A DNA stretch of 64,000 nt, from positions 17,717 to 81,716 of IMG/VR virus record IMGVR_UViG_3300046690_000279. The stretch is one strand, 5' to 3'. A program made the position numbers and the translations under genes. Source of the DNA: a virus. The notes below the pieces were generated by a model. The model saw nothing but the letters and a program-made list of their open reading frames with translations. It was not told the origin of the DNA and did not search any database. The first letter of the stretch is position 1, and each line of letters opens with the position of its first letter. This document shows positions 3,759 through 58,483 of this stretch, piece after piece.

Positions 3759-3774
3759 GGTATCCGACCCGCTA
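3759..3774 (+). promoter_or_regulatory. A-type phage-specific motif (variant GGTATCCGACCCGCTA)
   Basis: One of 7 copies in unit A. Confidence 0.6.
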
Positions 3775-3825
3775 GCTTCCCAGGGAAGAGGGCGGGTCGG
3801 GCACCCGATCGGCAAGGGCATTCCC

Positions 3826-4134
3826 ATGATTGATGGAGCAAGTATTGCCCCTGGTATGGCGTGGGTCATTGGAGCCATCGGCGCAAGCCTGGTGACCACT
3901 GGCCCCGCTTACTTGGCTGCACGTAAGTCCCGTGGCGCTGCACGTGAAGAAGGAGCGCTCACACGCGATGCAGTCGTGGGCGCTATCGGCGAGCTAAACG
4001 GGCGCCTCGATGGCCTCAGGGATGACCTGTCAGAAGTACGCGAGTGGCAGGCAGCACACACGACCGAGCACGCCATTTCGGCATTTCAGCGAACGGACCC
4101 ACATCCGCGCCTAGAGCGCAGAAACACGGAGTGA
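3826..4134 (+). CDS. Lysis-cassette membrane protein (1 TM plus coiled coil)
   Basis: Hydrophobic N-terminus; nearly identical at 43995. Confidence 0.75.
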   Translation: MIDGASIAPGMAWVIGAIGASLVTTGPAYLAARKSRGAAREEGALTRDAVVGAIGELNGRLDGLRDDLSEVREWQAAHTTEHAISAFQRTDPHPRLERRNTE

Positions 4135-4139
4135 AACGA

Positions 4140-4493
4140 ATGGCCATTTCCGGCAAGGTAACTGCGTCCACCGTTGCGGCGGCAGGGACCACGATTGTTG
4201 CGGGCATCATCGCGCCGCATGTGTTCAGTCACAGCGTGCCCAGTGACGTGCGGGGGCTCATCGAGGGTGGCGTGACCGCCGTTCTTACCTTCGTGTCTGG
4301 CTACCTCGCGAAGCACGGCATTTCTTACGAGCGGCTCGCCGCTGACACTGCCGCTGTGGCCGAGGATCTTGGGGTCCCGTACATGGCCCTGCCTGACGTC
4401 ACTGCGGAGGCTTCGCCGGACGTCGTCGCCGCTGGTGCTGGCTCGGTCGCTGTCGGCGCAGTTGTGACCCGTGAGGCTCAGCCGCTGGCGTAG
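4140..4493 (+). CDS. Putative holin (alternative start GTG 4131)
   Basis: Two hydrophobic segments; lies in the lysis cassette. Confidence 0.65.
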   Translation: MAISGKVTASTVAAAGTTIVAGIIAPHVFSHSVPSDVRGLIEGGVTAVLTFVSGYLAKHGISYERLAADTAAVAEDLGVPYMALPDVTAEASPDVVAAGAGSVAVGAVVTREAQPLA

Positions 4494-4497
4494 CGCC

Positions 4498-56366: not shown

Positions 56367-56762
56367 TTACCACCTCGTACGGTGAGGGGGAGGCCATGTT
56401 CCGGTTGCGGAGCGTGGCCTTTTCCTACTTTTTACCAAATCCGTTGAACGCTGGTCACGCCTTCGAATCTGTGTACGCCACATGTGAAGGAACGGTGTCT
56501 TCCGATCATTCCAAGGGATGAACCCCCGTCACGCCTTCGAAACCGCTACAACGATCGAACCTAGTAGCAGGTCTAACGGGTGCTCAGCGCAGAAAAGATC
56601 GTTGACCACCTACGGAAAACGGCGTTGAGTGCACACAGCAACGACGAGTGATCCGGCCGGACACTCGTCCACGCAGACACCCCACCCGATGGGGGTCAGT
56701 CTGCTGATCAGTGCCGCGCCCTAGCGCTCTCACCTGCACTTTTCCGGCCGGTTGTCCCCTCG

Positions 56763-56778
56763 GGCCTTTCACCCGATC
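56763..56778 (+). promoter_or_regulatory. B-type motif
   Basis: Upstream of the sigma-like gene. Confidence 0.7.
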
Positions 56779-56810
56779 CACACGGATCACACCCCGAGAG
56801 AGGCACACCC

Positions 56811-57914
56811 ATGCTTGCTATCGCCACCATCCGCGCCGCGCAGGACAACGACTTCGCCGCTACCGCTGAGGTCATCACCGCCACTGAACCCACCGTGCAG
56901 AGACTCGCCGCGAAGGCTGCACAGCGCATGGGCCAGCACCGGTTCGCTGACTACCGCGACGAGTTCGCACAGATAGGCCGCGCGACCATGTGGGAGGCGC
57001 TCAAGCGCTTCGCTGGCGAGACTGAGGCGGAGTTCTTCGGGTTCGTCATAAAGACCGTGGAATCGGCCCTGTACGACGCTGTGCGCAGTGAGAAGAACGG
57101 CGGGGCGGGTATCGACAAGGACGCCGTTTGGGTCTACTCGCAGATGCTCGTCAAGGCCAACGGCGACCCGTACAGGGCTGCGGAGCTGGCGCAGACCGAA
57201 CCGAAGGCTGGCGATCGACTCAGTGCGGACCGGGCGCACGCTGCCCGACTGGCTTACGCGGGTGCTGCCTCGCTGGACGCGCCGACTGGCGACGGTAACG
57301 AGACCCTGGCGGACACGCTCGCCGCGCAAGACATCGTGCCTGGCGTAGTTCAGCCCAAGGTGGGCCACGGTGCCGCCCTGGAAGCCCTGGCAGTACTACA
57401 GCGGTATTCCTCGGCGTACGCCGTGCTTAACGCGCTGCCGAAGGCGCCTGAGGACGTTGACAGCATCGAAGACGCCGTGACGCTCCCCCGCGAGGCTTCC
57501 GCCCGTAGGGCTGTGCTGGACGCCTGCGCCATCCTGCGTAGCTACGTGTCGACTGCCGCCGATGGTGACCTGGTCGACGAGCTGCGCGATGTGTCCGACG
57601 AACTGCGCGACGAGCGGGCCGAAAAGCACGCCAGGGTAAACGCGGCCGTTGACGCTATCGCTGGGCTCCGTGGTGATGTGCTCCGCTACAGCTTCGGGCT
57701 GGGTGGCTTCCAGTGCTACGGGCACGGCAACGATGGCGATGCGTCCGGGCTCGCTGAGCACCTGGGCAAGACTCAGATTCAGATCACTGACTCTCGCCGT
57801 AAAGCGTATGCATCCTTCGCGAAGAACTACGCGGAGATGCACAGCGCGGAGCGTGCGGCCGAGCTGCTCGCCGGTTTCGCTGCTACCCGTCGCGTAAAGG
57901 GTGGCAGCAAGTGA
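56811..57914 (+). CDS. Sigma70-like transcription factor, allele B
   Basis: Divergent homolog of 15957; HTH LAEHLGKTQIQITDSR. Confidence 0.75.
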   Translation: MLAIATIRAAQDNDFAATAEVITATEPTVQRLAAKAAQRMGQHRFADYRDEFAQIGRATMWEALKRFAGETEAEFFGFVIKTVESALYDAVRSEKNGGAGIDKDAVWVYSQMLVKANGDPYRAAELAQTEPKAGDRLSADRAHAARLAYAGAASLDAPTGDGNETLADTLAAQDIVPGVVQPKVGHGAALEALAVLQRYSSAYAVLNALPKAPEDVDSIEDAVTLPREASARRAVLDACAILRSYVSTAADGDLVDELRDVSDELRDERAEKHARVNAAVDAIAGLRGDVLRYSFGLGGFQCYGHGNDGDASGLAEHLGKTQIQITDSRRKAYASFAKNYAEMHSAERAAELLAGFAATRRVKGGSK

Positions 57915-58483
57915 TGACTGCCGCAAAGACATGCACGAAGTGTGGCGAGGCTAAGTCACTGGACGCTTTCGGTCGGAATTCCAGCGCGCGTGATGGCCTG
58001 CGGTCCAACTGCAAGATGTGCCAGAACGCCACTGTCGGGAGGTACAGGGACGAAAACCGGGTGCAGCTTAGGGAGTCAAACCGTGAGTACATGGCACAAC
58101 GGCGAGCCGAGGACCCCGAGGGAATGCGTCAGCGCAAACGCGCACATGACGCGACCTATCGAGCGCGGGTCAAGTCCAATCCGGAGCTACGTGCCCTGTA
58201 CTTCGCGCACATCAAACGGGGAGTGGACAAGCGTCGTGCGCTGAAACATGGGGCCGCACATGAGCCCTACAGCCGCACGGCCATATTCGCTGCCTACGGC
58301 AACACCTGCGCCTATTGCGACGCGCCAGCGGAGCACTTGGACCATGTCATCGCCCTGTCTCGGGGCGGGGCCGATGCCGCGCACAACCTGTTGCCTGCCT
58401 GCGCCCCCTGCAACCTGAGCAAGGGCGCGCGCAGTCTCGCCGAGTGGGTGCAGTCGTGGGGCCGTTCACCCGATCCAACCTGA
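57911..58483 (+). CDS. HNH endonuclease with N-terminal Zn finger
   Basis: KTCTKC, CAYC and DHVIALSRGG. Confidence 0.85.
   Translation: MMTAAKTCTKCGEAKSLDAFGRNSSARDGLRSNCKMCQNATVGRYRDENRVQLRESNREYMAQRRAEDPEGMRQRKRAHDATYRARVKSNPELRALYFAHIKRGVDKRRALKHGAAHEPYSRTAIFAAYGNTCAYCDAPAEHLDHVIALSRGGADAAHNLLPACAPCNLSKGARSLAEWVQSWGRSPDPT
58460..58475 (+). promoter_or_regulatory. B-type motif
   Basis: Position of A motif 17403. Confidence 0.7.

Follow-up and report, generated by a model that had tools for sequence, protein, structure and literature searches.

Introduction

How can two sister phages keep most of their genes nearly identical and differ at each homologous copy of a dispersed, promoter-like motif? 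The question is raised by a stretch of viral DNA of 64,000 nucleotides (nt), referred to here as the window, which covers bases 17717-81716 of the 81,716-bp IMG/VR record IMGVR_UViG_3300046690_000279 (G000), classed as having direct terminal repeats. Two phiC31-like units are found in this record. Unit A (G000 1-40375) carries the 16-bp motif GGTAACCGACYCGCTA (motif A), and unit B (G000 40376-81632) carries GGCCKTTCACCCGATC (motif B); the boundary falls at window position 22660, within the integrase gene. A sequence-only reading of the window had proposed that each motif is a promoter element read by the sigma-like protein of its own unit. In both units this protein is the homologue of phiC31 gp12. 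We examined the proposal in about 35 relatives, including phiC31, phiBT1, TG1, six SEA-PHAGES isolates, 17 IMG/VR contigs, and 11 Streptomyces prophages; a scan of metagenome contigs contributed two loci only, one of them a duplicate. Promoter function in A and B, recognition of the motif by gp12, and orthogonality are all inferred from comparative sequence data. On these data it is likely that the motifs form the specificity core of phiC31-type promoters, each read by its own gp12 sigma, and the A and B pairs are probably non-cross-activating, each sigma activating only its own promoter set.

Motifs A and B in the Two Units

The two halves of G000 are co-linear and about 85% identical. Motif A was found in 7 copies in the window and in one more upstream of it, at G000:1292, all on the + strand; 0.06 matches are expected by chance, and 8 matches were reached in 0 of 100 shuffles. 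The sole other match, with 2 mismatches, is on the − strand at 13683, within the polymerase gene. Motif B was present in 7 copies in the window, all of them on the + strand as well (chance expectation 0.11). The positions and strand bias given in the sequence-only reading were therefore reproduced, about 0.1 copies being expected by chance, and its statement that each motif is absent from the opposite unit holds at up to 2 mismatches. Positional pairing of the sites was also found, with a corrected count: there are seven A/B pairs and not six, since the copy at G000:1292, outside the window, is the partner of the motif B copy at 23964. The remaining site, 4498, before the gene of a deoxynucleoside monophosphate (dNMP) kinase, exists in A only. 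Paired motifs agree at 7-8 of the 16 positions. Multiple, strand-specific, near-identical intergenic blocks at the heads of genes, as in phiC31-type promoters, are thus present in 8 and 7 copies. The coordinates are collected in Table 1.

When up to 3 mismatches were allowed, unit A showed one B-like sequence matching at 13 of 16 positions, GGTCGGGCACCCGATC (window 3795-3810). It lies downstream of the lysin-site A motif, at a distance of 36 nt, and partly coincides with the 3′ hairpin arm complementary to motif A. Decay of a B-type promoter could explain it, a reading made ambiguous by the overlap with the hairpin arm.

Table 1: Features of the window discussed in the text (window coordinates unless G000 is given).
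Feature	Position	Strand	Remarks
Motif A, 1 mismatch (T at position 5)	3759-3774	+	After lysin gene; 5′ arm of hairpin
Motif A	4498-4513	+	Before dNMP kinase gene 4552-5112; no unit B partner
Motif A	7153-7168	+	Before exonuclease gene, gp1 homologue, 7208-8050
Motif A	8231-8246	+	Before recombination directionality factor (RDF) gene, gp3 homologue, 8389-9117
Motif A	11064-11079	+	Before primase gene 11103-13556
Motif A	15907-15922	+	34 nt ahead of gp12-A start codon
Motif A	17403-17418	+	After HNH gene 17084-17398, before gp13-like small gene
Motif B	23964-23979	+	Four-tRNA array 24108-24760 lies about 130 nt downstream; partner at G000:1292
Motif B	43932-43947	+	After lysin gene; 5′ hairpin arm, 3′ arm complementary to motif B
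Motif B, 2 mismatches	47685-47700	+	Before exonuclease gene 47739-48569
Motif B	48821-48836	+	Before RDF gene
Motif B	51942-51957	+	Before primase gene
Motif B	56763-56778	+	32 nt ahead of gp12-B start codon
Motif B	58460-58475	+	End of HNH gene 57911-58483, before gp13-like gene
gp12-A, sigma-70 family, 376 amino acids (aa)	15957-17087	+	sigma-2 about aa 1-95 (15957-16241); sigma-4 about aa 273-354 (16773-17018)
gp12-B, sigma-70 family, 367 aa	56811-57914	+	PHROG 15865, E 2e-102; full-length alignment with gp12-A
Divergent cassette, unit A	15830-17430	+	gp12 promoter, gp12, HNH, next promoter
Divergent cassette, unit B	56685-58487	+	Counterpart of 15830-17430
Operator-like 22-bp palindrome CACATACGGATATCCGTATGTG	17801-17822		One of 21 copies (unit A 10, unit B 11)
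158-nt identical stretch	22617-22774 (also G000:1-115, G000:81590-81716)		Inside serine integrase gene 21699-23204; A-to-B switch of assembly path

A Family of Motif Variants in phiC31-Like Phages

Each gp12-bearing relative examined had a private variant of one motif family, at syntenic sites, in 3-13 copies and almost always on the coding strand. At least 14 variants were distinguished (those assigned to named relatives are given in Table 2), and they align on the common skeleton GG-N6-AC-N-C-N2-T, in which GG at positions 1-2, A9, C12, and T15 are invariant. phiC31 itself has 11 + strand copies of GGGTTGCCGACTCCCTT, before gp2, gp3, gp9a, gp11, gp12, gp13, gp25, gp52, and gp46. The sites in units A and B are homologous to this repeat, being syntenic before the homologues of exonuclease/gp2, gp3, gp9a, gp12, gp13, and gp52. 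By these alignments the A/B swap is one case of a diversification that runs through the whole family and not a unique event.

Table 2: Motif variants and the phages or prophages that carry them.
Variant	Carriers
GGTAACCGACYCGCTAG	unit A, L025, L028, L029, L031/L038, L045, L046
GGTAATCGAACCGCTAG	L030
GGCGTTCGAACCGCTCA	L037
GGCCKKTCACCCGATM	unit B, L026, L027
GGCAWTCGACTCGCT	L040, L041, L048, L054
GGCATTCGACTCACTAG	Rowa
GGCCATCGACTCACTAG	L039/L042
GGGGGTCGACTCACTAG	L053
GGCAATCGGCTCCCCAG	L043, L049, L050, L052
GGTCACCGACTCCCTT	phiBT1, Vash, Lilbooboo, Euratis, Samora, Shawty, L033/L034, L055
GGTTGCCGACTCCCTT	phiC31
GTCGCCGACTCCCTT	TG1
GGTATCTSACTCCCTT	L047/L056

The variant of Rowa (L024), L039, L042, and L053 (for example, at L024:32034) contains the 10-mer CGACTCACTA, which we take to be identical to the T7 promoter core. 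One of the Rowa motif sites continues ...CACTAGGGAGAGA.

gp12-A and gp12-B as Sigma-70-Family Homologues

Over their full length, gp12-A and gp12-B are homologous to phiC31 gp12, phiBT1 gp12, and TG1 gp32 (45-51% identity), and both match PHROG 15865, annotated as "RNA polymerase sigma factor." The Pfam region 2 profile PF04542 (Sigma70_r2) recognized gp12-A with 27.1 bits, over the cut-off of 24. The profile TIGR02937 ("sigma70-ECF") spans aa 28-338 of gp12-A, covering both ends and reaching profile position 155 of 165; its scores, 40.4 bits for gp12-A and 25.8 bits for gp12-B, are below the cut-off of 42.9. Considering also that in the long form about 170-190 residues separate sigma-2 from sigma-4, gp12 is not a compact two-domain factor of the extracytoplasmic function type (ECF, group 4).

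Structural comparison was carried out with an AlphaFold (AF2) model of gp12-A (mean pLDDT, the predicted local distance difference test, of 76). With the whole model, sigma factors made up nearly all of the top 50 Foldseek matches, with E-values that are weak (1e-3 and above) because the domains of gp12 are flexibly linked; the usable result is that of the domain-level VIA alignments. In these, residues 1-95 were superimposed on region 2 of RpoS and sigma-E with Z 10.7-11.2 and a root mean square deviation (rmsd) of 2.5 Å over 91 aa, and residues 273-354 on the −35-binding domain of SigL (3hug_E) with Z 9.2 and rmsd 1.9 Å over 72 aa. The two domains that in members of the sigma-70 family serve core binding and −10 recognition (region 2) and −35 recognition (the region 4 helix-turn-helix) are thus both present in gp12. 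A sequence search of the PDB with the gp12 profile gave marginal sigma matches only (E about 0.5). The gp12 family is small and very diverse, with 188 clusters at 50% identity among 1.84 billion representatives, and it occurs in a long form (360-400 aa) and in a short form without the middle domain. By sequence homology and by the predicted structure, gp12-A and gp12-B are sigma-70-family homologues of phiC31 gp12.

The two proteins are only 45.5% (blastp) to 48% (MAFFT) identical to each other, and elsewhere the identity between A and B is 94% for the polymerase, 92.5% for the primase, 98.8% for the terminase, and 97.8% for the lysin. The sequence-only reading had described the sigma-like genes as far more divergent than the adjacent polymerase, the flanking lysin and primase genes as highly similar, and each sigma gene as preceded by its own motif; all three statements stand (46-48% against 94%; 97.8% and 92.5%; 15907 before 15957 and 56763 before 56811), and the region 4 helices that it quoted, TPGNVKKQRSAG and TQIQITDSRRKA, had been read correctly. 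Full-text literature searches on gp12 function and the phiC31 early promoters found no paper, and we know of no experimental test of the role of phiC31 gp12.

Motif Type and gp12 Type

Motif type matched gp12 type in all seven sister genomes, with no exception. Besides units A and B, these are G001 and G005 (9 A sites, no B site, and gp12 of type A in each), G004 (3 A sites, no B site, and a gp12 with A-like ends), and G002 and G003 (7 and 8 B sites, respectively, no A site, and gp12 of type B). To every open reading frame (ORF) of unit A we assigned a tracking statistic, the lowest identity to A-type phages minus the highest identity to B-type phages. It was +16.5 for gp12, with its antisense shadow ORF, and zero or below for the other real genes bar one ORF of 99 aa, considered below. 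RDF, HNH, polymerase, primase, and exonuclease showed no tracking of motif type in this genome-wide test. HNH and RDF were rejected as the specificity factor: L026 and L027 have an A-like HNH, and L026 an A-like RDF too (95% identical to that of unit A, and 78% for its HNH), yet both phages carry B motifs. In this gene-by-gene comparison of the whole genome, no gene other than gp12 clearly sets the A-type phages apart from the B-type ones.

The part of gp12 involved is indicated by a natural chimera. The gp12 of phage L025 (L025:1558-2652) has A-like N- and C-terminal parts, while its residues from about 205 to 290 are nearly identical to those of unit B. L025 carries motif A, and therefore the middle domain is not the determinant; the chimera maps the specificity association to the sigma-2 and sigma-4 ends. 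Mantel tests were carried out with 32 non-redundant genomes, the partial r controlling for polymerase distance. Motif distance correlated with the distance of the sigma-4 domain (r 0.70, partial r 0.62, p = 3e-4) and with that of the sigma-2 domain (r 0.41, partial r 0.19, p 0.02), that is, with the DNA-reading domains of gp12 and not with its middle domain.

On the polymerase tree the motif labels were scattered as if at random, unit B joining unit A and L028, apart from the B-type L026; when the B-type phages were held together on this tree, the approximately unbiased (AU) test gave p = 0.06. On the tree of sigma-2 plus sigma-4 of gp12 they formed a clade with 100% support on a long branch of 0.76 changes per site, and 6 of the 7 A-type phages clustered. 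The co-segregation of motif type with sigma clade, which the sequence-only reading had put forward as a test, therefore holds in every related genome examined, also when the backbone is controlled for.

These data also bear on whether recognition might be loose, with gp12 reading the motif family as a whole, sigma A and sigma B cross-activating, and the A/B difference being drift without orthogonality. Of the 16 positions, 8-9 are different between motifs A and B, among them positions 6-8, which show conservation elsewhere; none of the seven sister genomes mixes the two types, the 7-9 sites in each being uniformly A or uniformly B; and where the polymerase tree disagrees with gp12 type, motif type goes with gp12, with the sigma-2 and sigma-4 domains of the B-type phages on the very long branch mentioned above. 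All this is difficult to reconcile with drift. Some tolerance is nevertheless suggested by the variation within genomes (Y at position 11 in A, positions 5-6 and 16 in B-type phages, and position 13 in L045) and by the skeleton that is invariant in the family. Moreover, the phiC31, phiBT1-type, and TG1 motifs differ only at positions 4-5, and the gp12 proteins of these phages are 58-76% identical, a range that overlaps the 65-87% found among phages with identical motifs. On balance we regard loose recognition as unlikely, although it is the strongest of the alternatives considered here.

Putative Start Position and Promoter Geometry

Position 27, counted from the first base of the block, was a purine in 173 of 179 sites; a Y26-R27 step followed by a purine run, ten nt after the block, is found family-wide. 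Start codons cluster at positions 49-57, that is, 33-41 nt after the block. At several primase sites a Shine-Dalgarno sequence occupies positions 27-34, so that the start cannot lie further downstream; a start at positions 36-38, with a second block serving as −10 box, was rejected for this reason. These regularities place the putative transcription start about 10 nt past the block, near position 27.

One copy of the motif precedes the tRNA array of unit B, so the motif would be a signal for transcription and not for translation. This bears on the possibility that the motif acts at the RNA level, in processing, antitermination, or translation, rather than as a promoter. It is true that the lysin-site copy makes up the 5′ arm of a hairpin in which A and B show compensatory changes, and that the 3′ end of the phiC31-type motif, CTCCCTT, is complementary to the downstream Shine-Dalgarno-like GAAGGGAG at several sites. 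However, no hairpin is common to the sites, that of the lysin site being site-specific and terminator-like (the TG1 site has a T run); the covariation is with DNA-binding sigma domains; and A and B become alike again right after the block or from position 26 on, which is what a transcript starting there would predict. Of all the explanations considered, an RNA-level signal appears to be the least probable.

The geometry could also point to another reader, such as a phage RNA polymerase or a different DNA-binding activator, with gp12 merely co-varying or playing a different role. A contiguous single block is like the promoters of single-subunit polymerases, the presumed T7 core CGACTCACTA is present in Rowa, L039, L042, and L053, and the arrangement misfits a classical sigma-2/sigma-4 promoter. 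A search of the six frames of G000, made without a positive control, gave no match to RNA_pol PF00940, and all the large early proteins have other assignments (primase, polymerase A, integrase, and repressor-like protein). Save for the marginal 99-aa ORF, no further gene tracks motif type, and the correlation of motif distance is specifically with the DNA-reading domains of gp12, not with the middle one. We consider such a reader improbable.

A further candidate reader would be the sigma factors of the host, such as ECF sigmas that vary among Streptomyces hosts, the A/B difference then reflecting host adaptation. The 5′ half GGTAAC/GGTCAC is like ECF −35 boxes, CGAC is like an ECF −10 box, and the relatives are prophages of many Streptomyces species. 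But the two boxes stand here without the 16-17-nt spacer, and units A and B, assembled from one sample, have near-identical lysis and packaging genes. As host sigmas also leave the covariation with a phage gene unexplained, we give this explanation very little weight, less than that of another phage-encoded reader.

Reading of the motifs by gp12 is thus preferred, and several observations weigh against it. The motif is one contiguous block of 16-17 nt, when −35 and −10 boxes about 17 nt apart would be expected for a factor with sigma-2 and sigma-4. With the start at 27 this block spans −26 to −11, and yet it covaries most with sigma-4, which normally sits at −35. gp12-B reached only 20.8 bits with PF04542, under the curated cut-off of 24 bits. 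The 99-aa ORF (9011-9310; 49691-49876 in unit B), which follows the RDF gene and belongs to PHROG 14927 of function not known, marginally tracks motif type (+4.9). Of the seven swapped sites, those at 15907 and 17403 share the recombination cassette with gp12 and so are physically linked to it. Finally, what covariation provides is correlative evidence throughout. The phiC31 motif copies are reported to coincide with phage-specific early promoters mapped by experiment (Ingham et al. 1993; Smith et al. 1999).

If the preferred reading is right, gp12 would bind the core of the host RNA polymerase and recognize the motif variant of its own phage. It would drive the early operons, the tRNA operon, and some units of the late region, and also its own gene, in a positive feedback. 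Phages A and B have a common backbone, a common operator set, and a similar repressor; their gp12 alleles are different, and their motifs differ accordingly at all homologous sites. We advance more tentatively, as a possibility that we believe in less than we doubt, that the gp12 family represents a geometry new for sigma-70, in which a 16-17-bp block at −26 to −11, T7-promoter-like in some members, is read by sigma-4 and sigma-2 without the spacer of about 17 bp. The same proposal holds that the sigma/promoter type acts as a hybrid-incompatibility barrier between freely recombining phages, because every promoter in the genome must match the resident sigma.

Anatomy of the Swap and Regulatory Context

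At 15830 the A/B identity drops from 97-98% to about 50%, and at 17430, roughly 27 nt past the start of the last motif, it is back at about 92%. The cassette so delimited has sharp edges and was probably exchanged by recombination. Around the other five promoters the genes of A and B reach identities of up to 99%, and conservation resumes directly after position 16 in three pairs and at position 26 in two; these five promoters appear to have been replaced locally within well-conserved surroundings. This pattern suggests that A- and B-type phages still recombine and that selection keeps the promoters matched to the resident sigma.

The operator-like palindrome CACATACGGATATCCGTATGTG is common to both units, and their repressor-like proteins are 81% identical; shared immunity is plausible because of these two features.

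The intergenic region between the polymerase gene and gp12 (15514-15830 and 56367-56685; 320 nt) is 95-98% identical between A and B. It contains blocks that are invariant in seven divergent phages, including hairpins with compensatory changes, and a TTGACC-N17-TTGAGT box overlapping a half-operator-like sequence. It is tempting to speculate that a structured leader lies here, or that gp12 is first expressed from a host-type promoter in this region under the control of the repressor.

Two Phages in One Assembly

In G000 the two units lie head to tail. It was observed that the 84-nt "terminal repeat" of G000 recurs exactly in the middle of the record, at G000:40376, and that it sits within the 158-nt stretch that is identical between both halves. 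Logan contigs from two other rhizosphere runs cross this junction. From 22775 on, exactly six letters in these contigs separate the unit A continuation (G000 116-218) from unit B. The contigs continue as unit A, which means that in nature the left side of A joins the right side of A. A real tandem of two phages is ruled out by these joins in independent runs, and the A-to-B join is a figure-8 assembly path through the integrase stretch, not biology. Units A and B are separate phiC31-like sister phages of about 41 kb that co-occur in one sample and are not physically linked. The description as sister phages in the sequence-only reading was therefore borne out, and the tandem arrangement in the record turned out, by the independent contigs, to be an artefact. 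The stretch was found in 24 runs, every one of rhizosphere metagenome DNA, with no RNA run among them. The relatives of both units are Streptomyces phages and prophages.

Features of Individual Sites

At the A-only site 4498, a terminator-like hairpin (4515-4543, with a stem of 12 bp, then a T run) lies directly after the motif and before the dNMP kinase start. A transcript begun about 10 nt past the motif would start inside the hairpin and so would escape termination. At the end of the lysis genes (3759-3812 and 43932-43990; in TG1, L018 16790-16850) the motif supplies the 5′ arm of a hairpin; the 3′ arm co-varies with motif type, and in TG1 a T run comes after the hairpin. The arrangement resembles a late-operon terminator that overlaps the promoter following it.

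The leader CGAAGGGGGACGGGCGGCAGG that follows the motif at the RDF site (8247-8290 and 48837-48880) is identical in A and B and similar in relatives, and the RDF start codon is about 100 nt beyond it. It may be a conserved RNA leader or a small ORF. The tRNA array of unit B (24108-24760) encodes Asp, Asn, Leu, and Pro tRNAs, and Rfam detected nothing beyond these four. Scans of unit A for host-type promoters (2 against 3.1 expected) and for terminators (13 against 12.7 expected) were not above chance.

Comparison with Known Systems

If the preferred reading holds, the comparison provides strong evidence that names gp12 as the reader of the long-known phiC31 early promoters. A whole regulon would have been readdressed, the sigma being swapped as a cassette and each dispersed promoter replaced in place, while the surrounding genes keep recombining, so that the sigma/promoter type would be a compatibility group. 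Streptomyces is the main antibiotic-producing genus, and orthogonal expression tools are scarce in it; the family would offer a natural toolkit of at least 14 sigma/promoter variants, for which the chimera indicates the domains to swap.

The closest system is that of phiC31 (Lomovskayavirus C31), phiBT1, and TG1, whose genomes have the same organisation with dispersed palindromic operators. The motif of phiC31 can be aligned with motifs A and B at each position. The phiC31 motif differs from motif A at 4 of 16 positions and from motif B at about 9, the operator palindrome of the group is CCTACTCACGTGAGTAGG in place of CACATACGGATATCCGTATGTG, and the virion genes of phiC31 differ from those of A and B.

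T7, T3, SP6, and K11 likewise have private, multi-copy, contiguous promoter blocks that co-evolve with a phage-encoded specificity protein, and their polymerase-promoter pairs are orthogonal and used in synthetic biology. In those phages the specificity protein is a single-subunit polymerase, whereas here it would be a sigma-70-family candidate subunit for the host polymerase, and phages A and B are temperate siphoviruses of Streptomyces.

In the orthogonal ECF sigma/promoter sets, too, variation in sigma-2 and sigma-4 maps onto variation in the promoter boxes, and region 2 of E. coli sigma-E was among the best structural matches of gp12. ECF promoters, however, have a 16-17-nt spacer, while the motif here is one contiguous block, and no anti-sigma gene is evident in units A and B.

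SPO1 gp28 and T4 gp55 are phage sigmas that redirect the host RNA polymerase to phage-specific promoters, and T4 gp55 reads a single short block. They have no detectable sequence relationship to gp12, which retains a sigma-4 domain, and what is found here is one temporal promoter class diversified between sister phages. New here are a pair of sister backbones whose sigma/promoter sets are exchanged in full, a genome-wide test in which gp12 alone clearly tracks the motif, the natural gp12 chimera, and the anatomy of one cassette plus local replacements.

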